From sequence record PP400777: 64,000 nucleotides of DNA, one strand, 5' to 3'. Position 1 is the first letter of the stretch. Each line of letters starts with the position of its first letter. Below are positions 26,223 to 40,238 of the stretch, piece by piece. The position numbers and the translations under genes are program-made. The DNA comes from Escherichia phage JM10. The notes under the pieces were generated by a model. That model was not told the DNA's origin. It saw only the letters and a list, made by a program, of their open reading frames with translations, and made no database searches.

Positions 26223-26298
26223 GCTAATTTCCTCAATTGATTAATGTTTTTGTAATCCATGAGAGCATTATACTCTGCTCTCAAGAGTTTGTACAATT

Positions 26299-33810: not shown

Positions 33811-34486
33811 TAGATTTTCTCTCAAATTGCATGACTATATTTTTGTATGAACCTTCCGGAAATCCACGTTTAATGCTTTCTTTAGCAAATTTCCCAACCT
33901 TTGGTTTATCCAATTCTAACCATAATTTATATAAAGCAGATTCATATTCCCATACAGGACTTTTACGATTTTTAAGCCCACACTTTATAAGTGCTTCCTT
34001 TGTATGTTTCTTATTATAAAATGGATTGTTTTTGCCACTCATTGCTTTAGAATGTTCCGGGCGCTTAATTCCATACATCGGATTAAGATCGCCTTTCTTG
34101 ATAACGGATTGTAGTTCAATAGTTTCTTCAGAGTGATTGTGTCCATAAAATGGATTTAACTCTTTTGAAACATCCATACCAAAGCACCCATCGACTGTGG
34201 CATAAGACATGTTGAAAAATTTTTCAGATTTAACCACATTATGCAATTTCTGGTAATACAACTCACAAAACGTCGCTTCTTCCCGTGTATCAAATTCGCC
34301 AATAATACATGAATCAAATAAATGAGGATTATCTTTTATCTCTTTATCATAAATTTGTTTATATTTTTTCGACTTTACCGTACCATGATAGTGATTGTTT
34401 GTATGTTTATCAAGATAAGTAGACCCTATATAAAACGGTGGCAACTTATCGCCTGTGTATATTGTTAAGTATGTTATGTATTTCAT
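33803..34486 (-). CDS. GIY-YIG family homing endonuclease-like protein with NUMOD3 repeats (seg-like)
   Basis: N-terminal YITYLTIYTGDKLPPFYIGS (GIY-YIG-like) and repeated NPFYGHNHSEET / NPMYGIKRPEHSKAMSGKNNPFYNKKHTKEA NUMOD3-type motifs. Confidence 0.65.
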   Translation of the reverse strand: MKYITYLTIYTGDKLPPFYIGSTYLDKHTNNHYHGTVKSKKYKQIYDKEIKDNPHLFDSCIIGEFDTREEATFCELYYQKLHNVVKSEKFFNMSYATVDGCFGMDVSKELNPFYGHNHSEETIELQSVIKKGDLNPMYGIKRPEHSKAMSGKNNPFYNKKHTKEALIKCGLKNRKSPVWEYESALYKLWLELDKPKVGKFAKESIKRGFPEGSYKNIVMQFERKSND

Positions 34487-34513
34487 AAAGGTATTCTATC
34501 ATCCGAAATCTAA

Positions 34514-34535
34514 AGCAAAAAGGGCCGAAGCCCTT
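34514..34535 (-). terminator. Terminator-like hairpin
   Basis: AAGGGC-UUCG-GCCCUU followed by UUUUGCUUU on the minus-strand transcript, overlapping the stop of the 141-aa ORF. Confidence 0.6.
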
Positions 34536-34959
34536 ATTTAAATTTAATTTTCTGAAGTGCATCAATTGCAGCCAAACGTCCTTGTTCACTTTTAACTGTA
34601 ATGACCACATCGCCTGATACGATCACCGAACCATCAACAAATTCTATAGAGCCTTTTTTGAAATCGACAGCTGTATCTGGTTCCTGAACTTCTTCAAAGA
34701 ATTTAAATTCTGCACCATAAAGCAGAATATCACCTTGCATACTATGAATAGTTCGGCCATAATCGCCTACGGCTTCTACAGCAATAACCGAAACACCGTA
34801 ACCAATCATCTCTTCCACAATAAAATCTTTGGACAATAAAGTAGTATGCAGATTAGTATTAAGACGTTTACCAGTCGTATTAAGAATTCTCAAGAAATTA
34901 TCTTCCTGTCCTTTGATAATACGATATTTCTTACCAACTTCAAAACCTTTAAAAGCCAT
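34534..34959 (-). CDS. Hypothetical protein (141 aa)
   Basis: ORF upstream of the seg-like gene; position and size are compatible with T4 goF but I cannot confirm. Confidence 0.5.
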   Translation of the reverse strand: MAFKGFEVGKKYRIIKGQEDNFLRILNTTGKRLNTNLHTTLLSKDFIVEEMIGYGVSVIAVEAVGDYGRTIHSMQGDILLYGAEFKFFEEVQEPDTAVDFKKGSIEFVDGSVIVSGDVVITVKSEQGRLAAIDALQKIKFK

Positions 34960-34961
34960 AA

Positions 34962-35141
34962 TTAACCCTTCTTAAGTAAGTCGTAAAAACCACCATTCAC
35001 ATGTTTAGGAGCAGAAACCCGACGAGTAGACAGATGATGACATTCAGGGCAAACATCGTTTTCTCGTTCAGAAATTCTTTTAATTTTTTCATATTCATGA
35101 CCACAATCTTCAGATTGACATTTATAGTCGTATAACGGCAT
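34962..35141 (-). CDS. Small zinc-ribbon protein (59 aa), not in ORF track
   Basis: [59 protein letters not shown]: C-x4-C ... C-x2-C zinc ribbon (FmdB-like); start overlaps upstream stop (TAATG). Confidence 0.55.
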   Translation of the reverse strand: MPLYDYKCQSEDCGHEYEKIKRISERENDVCPECHHLSTRRVSAPKHVNGGFYDLLKKG

Positions 35142-35554
35142 TATTGTTCCTTAAAATGTGCTTTCAACATTTGATACAAAGACCATGCCTGGTCGTTATT
35201 TTCGATAGTAATTGTCATCACCGGAAATTCAGACAATTCGTCAAGTTCACCAGAATCTTGCTCTTCGGACGCTTGATACGGATTTCCCACTTCGTCAAAG
35301 AACTCTGCTTCATTCGTGGAGAGCCAGATAAAGTTTTCATCAAGAATATCACCGCCTGTTGCGTATCCAACCGTGCCAGTAGATGTCACAATTTTAGTAG
35401 GACGACCAAGATGGTCAACATCTAATACTTTAAATGGTTCCATGCCAAGACGTCGTGCATAAATCCCATTATCAGTGTGGCCTTTAATAAACTCTTCTTG
35501 GGCACGTTTATCTTTAAATTGGTACCATGAGTTAACGCGGAATTTATTAGCCAT
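35141..35554 (-). CDS. Hypothetical acidic protein
   Basis: Listed 143-aa ORF trimmed to the ATG overlapping the upstream stop. Confidence 0.45.
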
Positions 35555-35781
35555 TAGTAAGTTTCCTTCCAATAAGTTGTACCGTTTTCAGTGATTTCAC
35601 GGAAGATACCATAGATAGGCATTTCATCACCGAGTTTTTCGTAAACGTAAACCACTTCAGTGTAGCATAAAAATTCAGTCCAGTTTTTCTGTACAACAAC
35701 TAAATCAGGATTAAACAGAACATCTTCAAACTCATCGATGTTTGAATCAGTAGTTACGTTTTTAATGATTTGACGTTTCAT
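35554..35781 (-). CDS. Hypothetical small protein (about 75 aa)
   Basis: Listed ORF N-terminus runs through the promoter/hairpin; trimmed to the ATG preceded by AAGAGGAG. Confidence 0.45.
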
Positions 35782-35838
35782 AATATTCTCCTCTTGTTTT
35801 GATATGTCTATAGTATCATAGACCATAGTTGTTGTACA

Positions 35839-36363
35839 TCATTTTAGCAAAATAAAATCAACTTGTTCCGCCAATGAACGTCTGAACATTAATTGACAAC
35901 TTCCGAGGATGAAATCAGGTGCTTCATAGACCGCGATGTAGTATCCTTTAGCTTTCAAGAGTTCAACATCCACCTGGTCATCAAACCATGCATAAACCGC
36001 GTCAACACTTTCAAATCCAAAATAGAACCCTTTAGCCCAATCTTCACTCAATTCAAATGTGTGCTCAATTCTATAGTATCTTAAGATATTTTGTTCAAGG
36101 AGTTTGTCTTCATTTACTGTAGGACGATTAGGGACATTATAGTTGTCGCCGTGATGGTAGAAGTTACCTGAGAGTATTCCATGCTTATCAAGGAACTCCC
36201 ATGTTTCTTCAGAGTTGTCGGTGCCCGACCAACCGTATGGCGAACGAGGTTCTTTATTCCAAGAGGTTTCCCAAATTCTGACGGCTTTACCATCTTCGAT
36301 AGCAATTCCTGGTAATGATTCACGTTGAGTACAAAAACTACGTTCTACGCGGTAAACTAACAT
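35839..36363 (-). CDS. Hypothetical protein (174 aa)
   Basis: ORF with GGAGAA Shine-Dalgarno and early promoter cassette upstream. Confidence 0.5.
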   Translation of the reverse strand: MLVYRVERSFCTQRESLPGIAIEDGKAVRIWETSWNKEPRSPYGWSGTDNSEETWEFLDKHGILSGNFYHHGDNYNVPNRPTVNEDKLLEQNILRYYRIEHTFELSEDWAKGFYFGFESVDAVYAWFDDQVDVELLKAKGYYIAVYEAPDFILGSCQLMFRRSLAEQVDFILLK

Positions 36364-36418
36364 ATTATTCTCCTCTGGTTGATATAGTTATATTACCAAA
36401 ACCAGAGGAGAAGTAAAC
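36364..36418 (-). promoter_or_regulatory. Early promoter with anti-Shine-Dalgarno inverted repeat
   Basis: Minus strand GTTTAC-UUCUCCUCUGGUUUUGG-TAATAT..AACCAGAGGAG..ATG: the 11-nt arm CUCCUCUGGUU in the spacer is complementary to AACCAGAGGAG containing the SD. Confidence 0.6.
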
Positions 36419-36422
36419 AACT

Positions 36423-36842
36423 TTATGCGAAAGCAGCTGGGCTATATTTTTTAATTTGGAATTCAGGAACTACCATGAACTGTCCAGCGAAAACGATGTT
36501 ATAAAGCTTAACACCATCTTCTACCCAACGGTCGCTAATAAATCCAGCGATTTGCTTAGTTTTCCACGGTGTTCCATCAGTTGCCGCAGCAATAGTGAAT
36601 TCATGGTCTTTTTCAACAGAAACTGATCTGCATAGTCCCCATTTGAACGCTTTTTCTTCTGGTTCAATGAACTGGCTTGAGACGTAGCCAATATTACCAT
36701 TAGCATCACGAACTTTAACTTGGTTATGACCAAAAACCGGATCACTCACAGAAAGAACTTCAACCAACTTACCGGCAACTTTAGAGCGAGAAGCAACAGA
36801 TACATATACGTAATCACCTGTAGAGAGATTTACAATATTCAT
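36423..36842 (-). CDS. Paralog family member 1 (139 aa), unknown function
   Basis: Shares C-terminal motif ...SDRWVEDGVKLYNIVFAGQFMVVPE with the next two genes. Confidence 0.55.
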   Translation of the reverse strand: MNIVNLSTGDYVYVSVASRSKVAGKLVEVLSVSDPVFGHNQVKVRDANGNIGYVSSQFIEPEEKAFKWGLCRSVSVEKDHEFTIAAATDGTPWKTKQIAGFISDRWVEDGVKLYNIVFAGQFMVVPEFQIKKYSPAAFA

Positions 36843-36851
36843 AATAATTCC

Positions 36852-37307
36852 TTAAGCTTTACGAGGAGACACATAGCGAGTGATTTCAGATTCTTTAACA
36901 ACTCGGAAGTCACCTAAGAATACGATATTGTATAACTTTTCACCATCTTCAACCCATTGGTCACTAATGAAGCCACACATAGTATCAGTTTTGCTTGGAT
37001 AGCCGTATTCATCGATGAAGTCAAATTCTTTATCAGTCTGGAATTCAACACCTTTACACAAGGCCCATTTGAACTGTACATTAGGCTCAGTAGAAGCAAA
37101 AGCACCACTCACACGAGTTTCCAGGAATTTAGGACTTACGTAAGCGTACTGAGTATCCTGATGTCCAAAACTAGGAATGATTCGAACTTTAACTTCTTTA
37201 ATACGTCCCATGCCATTAGTACGAAGTCCTACTACTTCAACCAGCTTTCCTGCAGCTTTAGAACGAGACGCTGTCGATACACGTTTAATTTCACCAATAT
37301 TAATCAT
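36852..37307 (-). CDS. Paralog family member 2 (about 151 aa), unknown function
   Basis: ...FISDQWVEDGEKLYNIVFLGDFRVVKE; listed N-terminal 21 codons overlap the promoter repeat and were trimmed. Confidence 0.55.
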   Translation of the reverse strand: MINIGEIKRVSTASRSKAAGKLVEVVGLRTNGMGRIKEVKVRIIPSFGHQDTQYAYVSPKFLETRVSGAFASTEPNVQFKWALCKGVEFQTDKEFDFIDEYGYPSKTDTMCGFISDQWVEDGEKLYNIVFLGDFRVVKESEITRYVSPRKA

Positions 37308-37337
37308 ATTTTTTCTCTCTTTGTTTAAGTTGAATTC

Positions 37338-37368
37338 ATTATACTCCATCCATCCTTGGATGTAAAAC
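37338..37368 (-). promoter_or_regulatory. Conserved 30-nt early promoter repeat (copy 1)
   Basis: Plus ATTATACTCCATCCATCCTTGGATGTAAAAC = minus GTTTTACATCCAAGGATGGATGGAGTATAAT (-35 / -10). Confidence 0.6.
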
Positions 37369-37369
37369 A

Positions 37370-37864
37370 TTAATTAAGAATATTAACTACTGCACTACGT
37401 GGAACAACACTAAAATCACCAGCATGAACAACGTTAATAAGTTCAACACCATCTTCAATCCACTGATCAGTTACCCATCCACTCACTGGACCTGCGAACG
37501 GACGTCGAATTGAAACAGCTTTACACAACAAATCAGTAGGCTCAATAGGCTTAATCAGAGTACCGTACATACAAGCGATATCCATATCAATACAGATGTC
37601 TTTAACGGGTTCTACTTCTTCAATAAACAGTTCAAAGTCGGTGCTTGGAAGGGCGGTAGTAGAAATTGTACCGTATGAATTTTTAATTTCTAAGAATAAC
37701 CAAGGGCCTTCCGTTTGTTTGATGAAGTTAACAATAGTGAAACTATTACCTTGAGTGGCACCTAAAATTTCACAAAACTTTTCATAAGCTCGCACTGAAG
37801 CACCGTACCAGTTGATTTGTTTTTCGTCTTTCAGGATGTAAGTAGCCGTAGTATTGATATTCAT
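37370..37864 (-). CDS. Paralog family member 3 (about 164 aa), unknown function
   Basis: ...VTDQWIEDGVELINVVHAGDFSVVPRSAV; listed N-terminus starts at a TTG within the promoter; trimmed to ATG (MNINTTATY). Confidence 0.55.
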   Translation of the reverse strand: MNINTTATYILKDEKQINWYGASVRAYEKFCEILGATQGNSFTIVNFIKQTEGPWLFLEIKNSYGTISTTALPSTDFELFIEEVEPVKDICIDMDIACMYGTLIKPIEPTDLLCKAVSIRRPFAGPVSGWVTDQWIEDGVELINVVHAGDFSVVPRSAVVNILN

Positions 37865-37894
37865 AATGTTTTCCTGTTTGGTTAAGATAGAAAG

Positions 37895-37924
37895 ATTATA
37901 CTCCAACCATCCTTGGATGTAAAC
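37895..37924 (-). promoter_or_regulatory. Conserved 30-nt early promoter repeat (copy 2)
   Basis: Plus ATTATACTCCAACCATCCTTGGATGTAAAC = minus GTTTACATCCAAGGATGGTTGGAGTATAAT; abuts the dexA stop. Confidence 0.6.
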
Positions 37925-37929
37925 TGGTT

Positions 37930-38607
37930 TTATCGCTGTTTTACACTTAACGGGTCAGGATTCTCAGGGACATCTTCAAGGCCAAGCGCATAACGCTGAG
38001 CATATTTTAACATCAAAATATCTTTAGCACAATCATGAATACTATCATGGGCAACGAATCCTTTTAGCGTACCCATCGGTAATGGACACATACTTAATCC
38101 TCGTGTCAACGAGTAAGCTTCGATTGCCGTACGAATATCGCGTTGAGCCCAGAATTTAACCGGTTCTAATTTATCAGTATCAATCTCTGGTTCAAGAACA
38201 CCTTCATCACGATAGAGGTCACGAATCAAATCGACCAATATTGGGAAGTCAAAGCTCATACCACGGCACCACATCTGTGATTTCCATTGGTCAACTTTAT
38301 TAGCTCGGCAATAGTCTAAAAAGATTTTAATGCCTTCAAGCGTAGTGACATCATCTTCAGACGGAGCCAGGTTTTTACGCGCTTCAGCCGATTGTTCTTT
38401 CCACCATTTCATAGTGGATTTAGCGAAAACTCGCTTCCCTTTCTGAGAAGCTAAATTAAATTTAATTCGCTTACCTCGTTGAACAAGTTCTTCAAATGAT
38501 TCAACAACTTCAGGGTCGGAATTATATGCAATAACCGCAAGGTCAATAACAGCCGCTTTTGATGTATTGCCGAATGTTTCAAAATCTATAATAACATCAG
38601 TGCTCAT
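37930..38607 (-). CDS. dexA: Exonuclease A (DEDD 3'-5' exonuclease)
   Basis: MSTDVIIDFETFGNTSKAAVIDLAVIAY... DEDDh-type motifs; 225 aa; adjacent to dda. Confidence 0.8.
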   Translation of the reverse strand: MSTDVIIDFETFGNTSKAAVIDLAVIAYNSDPEVVESFEELVQRGKRIKFNLASQKGKRVFAKSTMKWWKEQSAEARKNLAPSEDDVTTLEGIKIFLDYCRANKVDQWKSQMWCRGMSFDFPILVDLIRDLYRDEGVLEPEIDTDKLEPVKFWAQRDIRTAIEAYSLTRGLSMCPLPMGTLKGFVAHDSIHDCAKDILMLKYAQRYALGLEDVPENPDPLSVKQR

Positions 38608-38616
38608 AATTTTCTC

Positions 38617-39930
38617 TCAAATAAAATGGACGTCAAACCGACCACGAGTTGTGCCGACATACAATAACTGTTTAGCTAATTCTGAATCGGCATAATGGAT
38701 ACACGGCGTATAAACAAAGGCCGTGTCAACAGACATACCCTGGGCCTTATGGAAGGTTGATACTGGTAGTGCCTTCACCTTAGTGAACATACGTTTAGCA
38801 TCCCAGAATTCGCTCCATGGAGCTTTACCACCTTTATTCCAGAATTTGTATGTTTCTGCGGTCTTAGCCAAAAACAAATTGAATTTATAAAGCTCTTCTT
38901 CAGAAGAAATAACCTTTATATCTTCGCGGATGTATTCTTCATCATCCCCGTATGTTTCTACTGTAAGATTCCAGTATCGTATCATATATTCGCCTGAAAC
39001 ACCGCGTGCTTTAACGAATGTAGACGTTTCTACAGCGTCTCGAATACGAACGAATTGCCCGTTATTGAAAAGCATTTCGGTCATATTTTTACCATCTAGC
39101 TTATATGTCTTAGTAAATGGCTCTTGTAGAACAATGACCTCGTCTTTAATAAATGGTTTTTCTGTTTCAAGAAGTTTTCGGCGAATAATTGAATTTAACT
39201 TGTCCACCGACTTATTTGTGAATGCCATCATTCGATTTTCGAAAAGGTCTTCAGGAGTTTTAACGATGTTAAAATAGTTCATCATATACGATTTAAGGTC
39301 TGTATATCCGTGAACACCGTGTCCATCAACTACTTTATCGTAAATCCATTTGCCATTACGAATATCAGTCGCAACATCAATAATTGGTGCATTGCTACGT
39401 TTAACTTCTGTAAGGTCGCATTGCACAAAGTCTTTGTGAGTGAAGAAAGGACTTAGATACGCAGTTGATTCGCCTGGGTCTACCGGACGAATCTGGCATC
39501 GGTCGCCGATTCCAATTACTGTACACCATTTAGGGATACTAGCTAACATTATTTTAAACAGAGAACGGTCGCACATTGACGCTTCATCAAATAACAGTAC
39601 ACGACACAAGGCTAAGTCGGGAACCTTTTTCTGTTCAAACAATACGTTTTCTTCGTATGTAGTTGGGTTGATTTTAAGAATGCTATGAATAGTCGATGCT
39701 TCTTGACCCGCAAGTTTGCTTAGAACCTTTTTAGCAGCATGTGTAGGGGCTGCTAAAATAATACCTGATTCTCCGGCAGAAATAAGAGCTTCAACGATGA
39801 ATCTAGTAAGGGTTGTTTTACCTGTACCAGCGGGCCCATTAATAGTTACGTGATGTTTCTTTTCTTTAATAGCGTTCATAACAACGTTGAAGGCGTTTTT
39901 CTGGCCTTCAGTCAAATCATCAAATGTCAT
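38617..39930 (-). CDS. dda: Dda DNA helicase (SF1B)
   Basis: Walker A INGPAGTGKTT, helicase motifs; 437 aa. Confidence 0.9.
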   Translation of the reverse strand: MTFDDLTEGQKNAFNVVMNAIKEKKHHVTINGPAGTGKTTLTRFIVEALISAGESGIILAAPTHAAKKVLSKLAGQEASTIHSILKINPTTYEENVLFEQKKVPDLALCRVLLFDEASMCDRSLFKIMLASIPKWCTVIGIGDRCQIRPVDPGESTAYLSPFFTHKDFVQCDLTEVKRSNAPIIDVATDIRNGKWIYDKVVDGHGVHGYTDLKSYMMNYFNIVKTPEDLFENRMMAFTNKSVDKLNSIIRRKLLETEKPFIKDEVIVLQEPFTKTYKLDGKNMTEMLFNNGQFVRIRDAVETSTFVKARGVSGEYMIRYWNLTVETYGDDEEYIREDIKVISSEEELYKFNLFLAKTAETYKFWNKGGKAPWSEFWDAKRMFTKVKALPVSTFHKAQGMSVDTAFVYTPCIHYADSELAKQLLYVGTTRGRFDVHFI

Positions 39931-40238
39931 CGTAAAGTCCCTGCAATTGGAATACTAACAATACGGCCTGTGTCCAGAATTCGTTGATACAATCTTTGCG
40001 TCTCCGCATCTAGTTTAATGTGTTTCATTTCAAGCTTATTAAACCAGAACTTACGCGGAGTTTCGACCATTCTTAGAACTCCCATTTTTAAATCTGTTTT
40101 ATACTGCGTTTTCAAAGTATCGAAAACTTTATCTGCAATATCCTTTCTAAAAAATACTGCAGGACGATGCTCATCAAGTGGAACCGGGACAGTAAATCCT
40201 TCCATATCTCGATAAACTATTGCATATACATAAACCAT
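39927..40238 (-). CDS. Hypothetical protein (103 aa, dda.1 position)
   Basis: ORF overlapping the dda start by 4 nt. Confidence 0.5.
   Translation of the reverse strand: MVYVYAIVYRDMEGFTVPVPLDEHRPAVFFRKDIADKVFDTLKTQYKTDLKMGVLRMVETPRKFWFNKLEMKHIKLDAETQRLYQRILDTGRIVSIPIAGTLR

Follow-up and report, generated by a model that had tools for sequence, protein, structure and literature searches.

Two of three adjacent early genes in the motB region of a T4-type phage are each preceded by a nearly identical promoter. Two scenarios may explain this arrangement. A gene may have been duplicated in tandem together with its promoter, as an earlier note on this DNA proposed. Alternatively, the promoters may be copies of an element that moves independently of the genes behind it. 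We weighed these scenarios, and others, against the relationship among the three proteins and the distribution of the promoter in the 64-kb stretch of DNA analyzed here (the window) and in related genomes.

The window is from a Mosigvirus, an RB69-like T4-type phage (97.9% DNA identity to Mosigvirus genomes). The three adjacent ORFs lie on the minus strand where the earlier note had placed them; the locus is the motB region of this phage, and A, B, and C are small early proteins. In the direction of transcription, they are gene C (37370 to 37864; 164 aa), a motB.1 homolog; gene B (36852 to 37307; 151 aa), the motB ortholog; and gene A (36423 to 36842; 139 aa), a second, more divergent motB copy of the RB69ORF010c type, without a promoter of its own. 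Their true starts are likely the ATG codons at 37864, 37307, and 36842. The longer ORFs of 178 and 172 aa implied by the earlier coordinates were rejected, as their N-terminal extension is translated promoter (MFYIQGWMEYN...). Only 9 nt separate B from A, and the SD of A overlaps the stop codon of B; A is therefore probably cotranscribed and translationally coupled with B. The neighborhood, dda-dexA-...-cef-goF, is common to the window and the T4 MotB/MotB.1 family, and the copy number of two motB genes and one motB.1 gene is that published for RB69 (PMC7827196; RB69ORF010c, PMC1524935). RefSeq annotates gp010-gp012 of PhAPEC2 as MotB, MotB, and MotB.1 homologs. The three genes do not differ substantively from the T4 family, the RB69 arrangement included. 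An Rfam search of positions 34000 to 40000 returned only sub-threshold chance matches (Y_RNA, 29.6 bits against a gathering score of 38; SNORA48).

Pairwise alignment, the check suggested in the earlier note, separates two degrees of relatedness. A and B share 43% identity over their full length (E = 7e-32), whereas the alignments of C with A and with B are confined to the C-terminal 36 to 57 residues (E = 7e-11 and 3e-10). The motif common to all three, GF/W-I/V-S/T-D-Q-W-V/I-E-D-G-x-x-L-x-N-I/V-V, is statistically significant. Since its similarity to A and B is limited to this C-terminal module, C is a domain-level paralog and not a whole-gene one. The proposal of three tandem paralogs arising by local duplication agrees with these alignments and with published work (PMC1524935, PMC7827196); full-length similarity applies to A and B, and what C shares with them is just the C-terminal ~40 to 57 aa (E of about 1e-10). 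A tblastn search with the MotB C-terminal module recovered no copies elsewhere in the window.

All three proteins pass the curated gathering cutoff (25 bits) of the Pfam family PF17613 ("motB, modifier of transcription"), with whole-protein scores of 132 (B), 75.8 (A), and 36 (C) bits, and this domain is carried by every homolog among the database matches listed. B covers positions 2 to 157 of the 162 in the profile, and A aligns over its full length to both B and T4 MotB (37% identity, E = 7e-26). Both have the full-length MotB architecture of a KOW/SH3-like N-terminal domain (NTD) and a C-terminal beta domain, joined in B by a disordered linker. This architecture is absent from C, in which an N-terminal beta/alpha domain of its own and a disordered linker precede the MotB-type C-terminal beta-barrel. 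Since the C-terminal domain (CTD; residues 84 to 159) alone fits PF17613, C belongs, judging by sequence, to the MotB.1 subfamily (phrog_2333; 46% identity to T4 MotB.1); identity to the T4 counterpart is 48% for B. The PHROG matches within the MotB/MotB.1 family are 1671 and 2333. AlphaFold2 (AF2) models have two domains with KOW/Tudor-type barrels; a search of solved structures by sequence gave no match. As in the T4 family, MotB of the window combines a KOW/SH3-like NTD with a C-terminal barrel, and MotB.1 combines a different NTD with the same CTD; the linker of C is 20 aa longer than that of T4 MotB.1.

Much of this has precedent. RB69ORF010c was described as a paralogous duplication of motB (Nolan 2006, PMC1524935), and MotB and MotB.1 are known to share a CTD, with two motB genes and one motB.1 gene in RB69 (Patterson-West 2021, PMC7827196). 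T4 MotB is toxic to Escherichia coli, binds DNA nonspecifically, copurifies with H-NS/StpA, and raises burst size twofold (PMC6070864); toxicity, DNA binding, and an altered H-NS footprint are reported for it in PMC6070864 and PMC7827196. By analogy with T4 MotB (PMC6070864), the family would have an early function of the host-takeover type, in keeping with the earlier suggestion; the anti-defense alternative raised in the earlier note gained no support. Published work (PMC6070864, PMC7827196, PMC12152347, PMC1524935) thus already covers the paralogy of motB and motB.1, the host-takeover character of MotB, and the additional motB of RB69-like phages, and the genes themselves add nothing new to it.

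The promoters are a different matter. Copy 1, P(motB.1), occupies positions 37895 to 37924 on the minus strand (GTTTACATCCAAGGATGGTTGGAGTATAAT; -35 GTTTAC/TTTACA, 17-nt spacer, -10 TATAAT), within the 65 nt that separate the stop codon of dexA (37930) from the motB.1 ATG (37864). Copy 2, P(motB), occupies 37338 to 37367 on the same strand (TTTTACATCCAAGGATGGATGGAGTATAAT; TTTTAC..TATAAT); it starts 2 nt past the motB.1 stop codon, in a 62-nt intergenic gap. The copies are identical at 28 of 30 positions, and the 30-mer occurs twice in the window, with 0.00 occurrences expected (100 shuffles), so that the earlier report of a nearly identical 30-nt promoter before two of the three genes holds. 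No further site within 8 mismatches of the 30-mer exists elsewhere in the window. Each copy matches the sigma-70 consensus at 11 of 12 positions, and they are the two best matches in the 5.2-kb locus. The SA35RD annotation lists one cassette copy as a promoter.

By their sequence, both 30-mers are bona fide sigma-70 early promoters of the T4 type, with early timing expected from T4 precedent. They resemble T4 early promoters (PMC2988021) in the -35 GTTTAC, the 17-nt spacer, the perfect TATAAT, the AT-rich upstream sequence, and the position directly 5' of early genes. Upstream of the motB.1 copy lies GATAAAACCA; upstream of the motB copy lies the AT-rich TTAATTAATG, without an A-tract. Unlike the "uber" UP/-35/TGn/-10 promoters of T4 (PMC2988021), neither copy has the TGn extended -10, which is replaced by GAG, and in contrast to the loose T4 consensus, the spacer is conserved here as a discrete family. 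In both copies, the -10 box ends exactly 30 nt before the ATG. The resulting leaders of motB.1 (37865 to 37894, minus strand; SD AGGA) and motB (37308 to 37337, minus strand; SD GAGAG) are identical at 18 of 30 positions, against ~27% expected from base composition. The first ~15 nt of the motB.1 leader (ctttctatcttaac) is common to the leaders of nrdC.3-type copies, and the 3' half of the motB leader (CTTAAACAAAGAGAGAAAAA) is kept in the motB leaders of Aplg8 and T4.

If a gene, its promoter, and its leader had been tandemly duplicated to give motB.1 and motB, with purifying selection keeping the promoter while the coding sequences diverged, one would expect much of what is seen locally: the two units are adjacent, the distance from -10 box to ATG is the same, the leaders are more alike than base composition predicts, and MotB.1 and MotB share a duplicated C-terminal module (PMC7827196). 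The distribution of the promoter across genomes argues otherwise. The complete genome of a relative carries five copies, in the motB, nrdC.x, and 30.x regions, with 16 to 18 of 18 spacer positions identical. Three of the five precede genes that are related neither to MotB nor to one another, namely, an NrdC.3 homolog, an NrdC.5 homolog, and a 65-aa ORF, and the leader start tctatcttaac precedes these genes as well. The copies before the NrdC.5 and NrdC.3 homologs form a second adjacent promoter pair; paralogs behind it would have supported co-duplication, but the 319-aa and 316-aa products resemble neither one another (best E = 0.46) nor the MotB proteins. The motB.1 orthologs of the Tequatrovirus phages Aplg8 and T4 lack a promoter of their own, and the motB promoter there comes from a different sequence family, the swap being confined to ~45 nt between conserved flanks; this arrangement suggests that the promoter reached motB.1 and motB after MotB and MotB.1 had split. 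The shared coding module has 51 to 63% DNA identity, with ~40% at third codon positions, which places it near saturation by sequence, while the promoter is 93% identical. The clearer gene duplication, that of A and B, carried no promoter along. Because of the unrelated genes behind three of the copies, the Tequatrovirus arrangement, and the saturated coding DNA, the promoter does not appear to be a relic of a gene-plus-promoter duplication; we consider that origin quite unlikely, and this part of the earlier proposal is not sustained.

Nor does the resemblance look like mere adherence to a T4-type early-promoter consensus, which would carry no information on history or function. T4 early promoters do have extra conserved positions beyond the -35 and -10 boxes (PMC2988021), and GTTTAC, GAG, and TATAAT recur in other early promoters of the complete relative. 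Yet among its 14 early-type promoters, spacer identity is bimodal, with 16 to 18 of 18 positions within the family and 2 to 9 of 18 between unrelated pairs (mean overall, 6.4 of 18). This effectively refutes the consensus explanation, against which the lack of further near matches in the window and of any match in the shuffles also counts, and leaves it extremely improbable.

Our preferred reading, to which we assign a probability of roughly 0.8, is that the two promoters are copies of one conserved cassette, exchanged at the motB region of this RB69-like phage in the manner of promoter-early stem-loops (PeSLs), the mobile regulatory cassettes of T4-type phages (Arbiol 2010, PMC2839356; Comeau 2014, PMC4122927). 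Like PeSLs, the cassette family is a multicopy, highly conserved early promoter of hyperplastic early regions, with five copies per genome forming a discrete family, and it matches the T4/PST-type PeSL promoter consensus TTTACW-N17-TAYWAT. It also lies at the edges of rearrangements and of promoter swaps between related phages: the motB promoter block has been swapped, and the motB.2 unit has been relocated from its promoter on. With the leader start, the cassette spans ~45 to 50 nt, a length usable by T4 recombination. Unlike PeSLs, it has no adjacent GC-rich terminator stem-loop, its sole dyad being a weak one of 6 bp that lies between the -35 box and the spacer. No terminator stem-loop of the PeSL type was found beside either promoter in the intergenic regions, whose folds, with the promoter counted in, are no more stable than those of shuffles (z = -0.7 and -0.5). 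"PeSL analogs" have been described at internal-protein loci of T-even phages (Repoila 1994, as cited in PMC2839356).

A further difference from PeSLs is that close relatives show no indel between the two local copies. No deletion or duplication of motB.1 between these direct repeats was seen in them, so recombination at the two local copies is drawn from between-genus comparisons only. Partial-coverage matches among relatives reflect T4-type gene order.

In the cassette model, host sigma-70 RNA polymerase would use two strong early promoters, each ending 30 nt before a start codon, with P1 driving motB.1 and P2 driving B and the coupled A. By homology to T4 MotB, B and probably A would be abundant proteins of the first minutes of infection that bind DNA without sequence specificity; they may coat DNA and remodel H-NS/StpA-DNA complexes, modestly improving phage yield. 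MotB.1 is dispensable in T4. The promoter-plus-leader cassette would drive the NrdC.3 and NrdC.5 homologs and the 65-aa ORF as well, and short-homology recombination, that is, the PeSL promoter-cassette shuffling of T4-type phages, would have put it at motB.1 and motB. Because early promoters are exchangeable multicopy cassettes, near-identical promoters before neighboring paralogs in T4-type phages do not amount to evidence of co-duplication.

Exchange leaves the conservation of the spacer to be considered. One copy is kept in Dhakavirus and Gaprivervirus, before a gene whose product, like the NrdC.3 homolog of Mosigvirus, starts MTR(T/N)EY (annotated in VR20 as NrdC.4-like), and across the three genera, the promoter is conserved at 28 to 30 of 30 positions while the adjacent leaders diverge. 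This near-identity across loci and genera points to selection on the spacer sequence itself, in which a 6-bp dyad, CAWCCA-AGGA-TGGWTG, lying across the -35 box and the spacer, may play a part. At copy 2 (37347 to 37362, minus strand), all six pairs form (CATCCA-AGGA-TGGATG). Copy 1 (37904 to 37919, minus strand) is a hybrid of two common haplotypes with five of six pairs (CATCCA-AGGA-TGGTTG); since the nearest relative, L012, keeps a perfect CAACCA...TGGTTG there, the A-to-T change in the window is derived. Because a scan of IMG/VR viral contigs yielded only 10 stretches, 13 distinct promoter sequences were compared; in these related sequences, which comprise three haplotypes and are also those from which the structure was derived, 92% of cells are paired, two pairs are changed on both sides (one yielding a U-G wobble), and the covariation score is 0.188 against 0.059 in shuffles (1/500), falling near zero in all slid registers. 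A second promoter family, which includes the T4 motB promoter, also has a compensated dyad (GAGAGC/GCTCTC, GGGACC/GGTCCC, GAGAGCC/GGCTCTC), in this case bracketing the -10 box. The compensated dyad in the spacer is possibly the sole new detail here.

The spacer might accordingly be a functional site that keeps the copies alike, either an operator at which a dimeric protein of phage or host would co-regulate the five early units, for example in shut-off, or an RNA hairpin by GGAG, serving in read-through transcripts as a signal for processing or stability, for example for RegB. The compensated changes in both families fit this idea, as does the fact that AsiA does not explain the shut-off of T4 early promoters (PMC2988021). 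On the other side, few and related haplotypes underlie the covariation, the motB.1 copy of the window breaks one pair, and the loop-closing pair is broken in 3 of the 13 sequences; the RNA hairpin of the copy 2 30-mer is weak (-7.3 kcal/mol, z = -2.8) and does not reach significance when folded within its 68-nt context (z = -0.7). As the main explanation of the repeat we find a functional site fairly unlikely; it would account for the conservation of the copies, not their origin, and so complements the cassette model. An extension of it, which we regard as unlikely, makes the five-copy family a small early regulon (motB.1, motB plus motB', the NrdC.3 and NrdC.5 homologs, and the 65-aa ORF) with the dyad, which compensatory changes preserve in Mosigvirus, Dhakavirus, and Gaprivervirus, as the putative recognition site of a phage or host factor. 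The candidate would be a protein that binds an operator in early shut-off, or else hairpin/GGAG processing of read-through RNA. With the second family analogous, T-even early promoters would fall into discrete, separately regulated, exchangeable classes. If functional, the dyads would offer a handle on the shut-off or processing of subsets of T4-type early promoters and on the sequence features that guide cassette shuffling in hyperplastic regions.

The transcription unit of B and A probably ends at a strong hairpin (TTCTCCTCTGGTT...AACCAGAGGAGAA; 36364 to 36422, minus strand) that overlaps a third early-type promoter (GTTTAC-N17-TAATAT), that of a motB.2-like gene (35839 to 36363, minus strand; 174 aa). 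Folded from 36364 to 36425, the hairpin reaches -22 kcal/mol (z = -5.4; 0 of 200 shuffles as stable), its 3' arm holds the SD of the motB.2-like gene, and it is annotated as a terminator in SA35RD. By tblastn with the MotB C-terminal module, the motB.2-like protein has no paralogous relationship to A, B, and C. Its gene lies downstream of the motB genes in the window, whereas motB.2 sits between dexA and motB.1 in T4 and Aplg8, and homology to these two phages starts exactly at AAAGTTGTTTAC, which places the edge of the motB.2 cassette at its promoter.

Three adjacent minus-strand genes lie between dexA, a 225-aa exonuclease gene (37930-38607), and a 174-aa motB.2-like ORF (35839-36363). With their most likely starts, they are gene C, a motB.1 homolog (37370-37864, 164 aa); gene B, the motB ortholog (36852-37307, 151 aa); and gene A, a second motB copy (36423-36842, 139 aa). 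The C-terminal motif that the earlier note described is present in all of them, with the invariant core D-x-W-x-E-D-G-x-x-L-x-N-x-V, and pairwise alignment gave significant similarity for every pair. The proposal of three paralogs holds over the full length for A and B (43% identity, E=7e-32), whereas C is a paralog of these two at the domain level only, since its alignments with A and B are limited to its last 36-57 residues (E=7e-11 and 3e-10, respectively). Other start choices run into the promoters (37308-37370 and 37865-37906, minus strand): B is 172 aa in many database entries (P0001, P0003, P0006, and others), and our ORF list gave C as 178 aa from a TTG inside the promoter. The resulting N-terminal extension, MFYIQGWMEYNEFNLNKERKN, comes from translating the promoter and leader. 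Shine-Dalgarno (SD) sequences accompany the starts of the 151-aa and 164-aa forms, whose N termini align with those of T4 MotB and MotB.1.

The 2.85-kb locus is 96-98% identical to that of many Mosigvirus (RB69-like) genomes, and B is 100% identical to an Escherichia phage JM10 protein. In the RefSeq annotation of PhAPEC2, the counterpart of C is similar to T4 MotB.1 and those of B and A to T4 MotB, followed by a 174-aa gene similar to MotB.2 and then cef and goF. All three proteins pass the curated cutoff of the Pfam family PF17613 (motB), B with 132 bits over its full length, A with 75.8 bits, and C with 36 bits from the C-terminal domain only; PHROGs places B and A in phrog_1671 and C in phrog_2333. 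Identity to T4 is 48% for B and MotB (E=1e-44), 37% for A and MotB (E=7e-26), and 46% for C and MotB.1 (E=3e-46). AlphaFold2 models built from alignments of database homologs show two domains rich in beta structure with a disordered linker between them (pLDDT 80.7 and 78.6). The MotB family is restricted to T-even-type phages; among the matches listed, tblastn finds two places per genome with B-type MotB and one in T4-type genomes.

RB69ORF010c has been described as a paralogous duplication of motB (Nolan et al. 2006, PMC1524935), and RB69 carries two motB genes and one motB.1, whose products have a conserved C-terminal domain in common and different N-terminal domains, probably via duplication (Patterson-West et al. 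2021, PMC7827196). T4 MotB is an early protein, toxic in Escherichia coli, that binds modified and unmodified DNA with no detectable specificity, copurifies with H-NS/StpA, alters the footprint of H-NS, and increases burst size twofold (PMC6070864, PMC7827196). T4 can dispense with MotB.1, whose N-terminal domain has a predicted LSm-like fold related to GoF and Frd.2 (PMC12152347). Since paralogy, RB69 copy number, and MotB function are already published, the gene part of the locus is known biology: a known family in a known arrangement. By analogy with T4 MotB, host takeover appears a fair description of this type of gene.

The MotB.1-type C-terminal module (74-86% identity over the last ~35% of C; database proteins P0146-P0240) also follows N-terminal regions of at least three other kinds, giving proteins of ~145, 177-183, and 245-250 aa, which match "categories 2-4" of PMC7827196; it is a repeatedly shuffled module. 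A GoF homolog lies two genes downstream (35141-35572, minus strand), and because the N-terminal domain of GoF is reported to have its LSm-like fold in common with that of MotB.1 (PMC12152347), the locus has a further distant structural relative. A subthreshold Rfam match to Y_RNA inside the motB.1 coding region (37622-37715, minus strand) scores 29.6 bits (E=0.0059), where the gathering score is 38, and is most likely due to chance.

The near-identical promoters were borne out. The 30-mers P1, upstream of C (37895-37924), and P2, upstream of B (37338-37367), are identical at 28 of 30 positions; at up to 3 mismatches the motif has two matches in 64 kb against 0.00 expected, and the window holds no further site within 8 mismatches. 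On the coding strand it reads (G/T)TTTAC-A-TCCAAGGATGG(T/A)TGGAG-TATAAT, which is, judged by its sequence, a T4-type sigma-70 early promoter with a -35 box (GTTTAC/TTTACA), a 17-nt spacer, and a perfect -10 box. Within the 5.2-kb locus, no other site matches sigma-70 as well as P1 and P2 do (11/12). Both lie in short gaps between genes, with exactly 30 nt separating P1 from the ATG of C and P2 from that of B, and the leaders contain SD sequences. Gene A has no promoter, starts 9 nt after B, and has an SD overlapping the B stop codon. This predicts the units P1 to motB.1 and P2 to motB(B)-motB(A), which would end at a strong hairpin (-22 kcal/mol and z=-5.4 for the fold of 36364-36425).

Two scenarios may explain this repeat. 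The promoter could have been duplicated along with its gene, as the earlier note proposed from the paralogous ORFs and the paired 30-mers; alternatively, P1 and P2 both belong to a family of early-promoter cassettes that are dispersed and exchangeable. In the close relative MRostami-2023e, whose genome is complete, the promoter occurs five times: twice at the motB locus, twice ~42 kb away, and once more with a spacer of 18 nt. The three outside the motB locus precede an NrdC.3 homolog, an NrdC.5 homolog, and, in the gene 30.x region, an ORF of 65 aa; these proteins are unrelated to one another and to MotB, and the leader start tctatcttaac is common to the motB.1 and nrdC.3 copies. Spacer identity among 14 early-type promoters of this genome is bimodal (2-9/18 for unrelated pairs, 16-18/18 within two families), so the similarity of the 30-mers is more than an early-promoter consensus. 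Dhakavirus and Gaprivervirus genomes have a single copy, 27-29/30 identical with a diverged leader, upstream of a gene that starts MTR(T/N)EY, as the Mosigvirus NrdC.3 homolog does, and that the VR20 annotation calls NrdC.4-like.

Co-duplication is also at odds with the Tequatrovirus loci. In T4 and in Aplg8, a phage that likewise has two motB genes, motB.1 lacks its own promoter and follows motB.2 after a 10-12-nt gap, and motB is under a promoter of a second family (GTTTAC...GGGACC-AGAGTATAAT-GGTCCC and GTTTAC...GAGAGCC-TGTTATAAT-GGCTCTC, respectively). When the window is aligned with these phages, conservation covers the end of motB.1 and, at motB, the coding start together with the 3' half of the leader; the replacement is confined to a ~45-nt promoter block. 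The motB.2 unit differs in position between the two lineages, and its homology begins exactly at its own promoter (AAAGTTGTTTAC). Moreover, the DNA for the shared C-terminal module is 51-63% identical (third positions ~40%), compared with 93% for the promoters. Dispersed copies, the swap at motB, and diverged coding DNA thus point to exchange of promoter-leader cassettes, a better explanation than gene-plus-promoter duplication. Such exchange probably proceeded through short-homology recombination, the mechanism proposed for the promoter-early stem-loops (PeSLs) of T4-type phages (PMC2839356, PMC4122927). The repeat fits the T4/PST PeSL promoter consensus TTTACW-N17-TAYWAT but lacks the classical terminator stem-loop; we therefore class it as working like a PeSL and not as a member. 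Close relatives also showed no indel between the two local copies.

What modest novelty remains is that the promoters fall into discrete families with internal dyads that show compensation. Within the P1/P2 spacer lies a 6-bp dyad around a 4-nt center, possibly a new detail, which overlaps the end of the -35 box and is directly followed by GGAG. Among 24 ungapped copies from the loci first collected, two haplotypes occur, CAACCA-AGGA-TGGTTG and CATCCA-AGGA-TGGATG, both perfect dyads; more divergent copies include CTTCCA...TGGAGG in VR20, where T-G replaces the A-T pair (in RNA, a wobble), and TATCCA...TGGATG in CEV1. Across 13 distinct sequences, 92% of cells pair, two pairs are changed on both sides, and covariation is 0.188 compared with 0.059±0.03 in shuffles (1/500) and 0-0.06 in slid registers, values from related sequences that also supplied the structure. 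The hairpin has low stability (-7.3 kcal/mol), with z=-2.8 when folded alone and z=-0.7 in its context. The motB.1 promoter of the window (37895-37924, minus strand) has a one-mismatch hybrid dyad, CATCCA...TGGTTG, which no other copy examined shows; at the same place (L012, position 1323) the nearest relative carries CAACCA...TGGTTG. The hybrid arose by point mutation or else by a very short conversion, with the motB copy, 557 nt away, as donor. A specific function for the dyads seems unlikely to us; candidate roles would be a DNA-binding factor, RNA structure in read-through transcripts, or recombination.

A second discrete early-promoter family, (G/T)T(T/G)TAC-AAACTCTTGAGAGCAGAG-TATAAT-GCTCTC, occurs in the window (26267-26295, minus strand), in MRostami-2023e (4767, 33137, and 98351 in the genome as assembled from L004-L007), in the T4 locus (L002, 2424), and in the Aplg8 locus (L025, 1470-1541). 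Here a 6-bp dyad brackets the -10 box, and compensatory changes keep the pairing: GAGAGC/GCTCTC, GGGAGC/GCTCC, GGGACC/GGTCCC at T4 P(motB), and GAGAGCC/GGCTCTC at Aplg8 P(motB).

The hairpin between motB(A) and the motB.2-like gene (36364-36425, minus strand) is annotated as a terminator in one relative, yet it has no U-tract. An early-type promoter, GTTTAC-N17-TAATAT, has the 5' arm of the hairpin in its spacer, and the SD of the motB.2-like gene (GAGGAG) is part of the 3' arm. From this layout, the SD would be sequestered in read-through transcripts and free in transcripts from the local promoter, a design resembling that of T4 genes such as e, soc, and 49.
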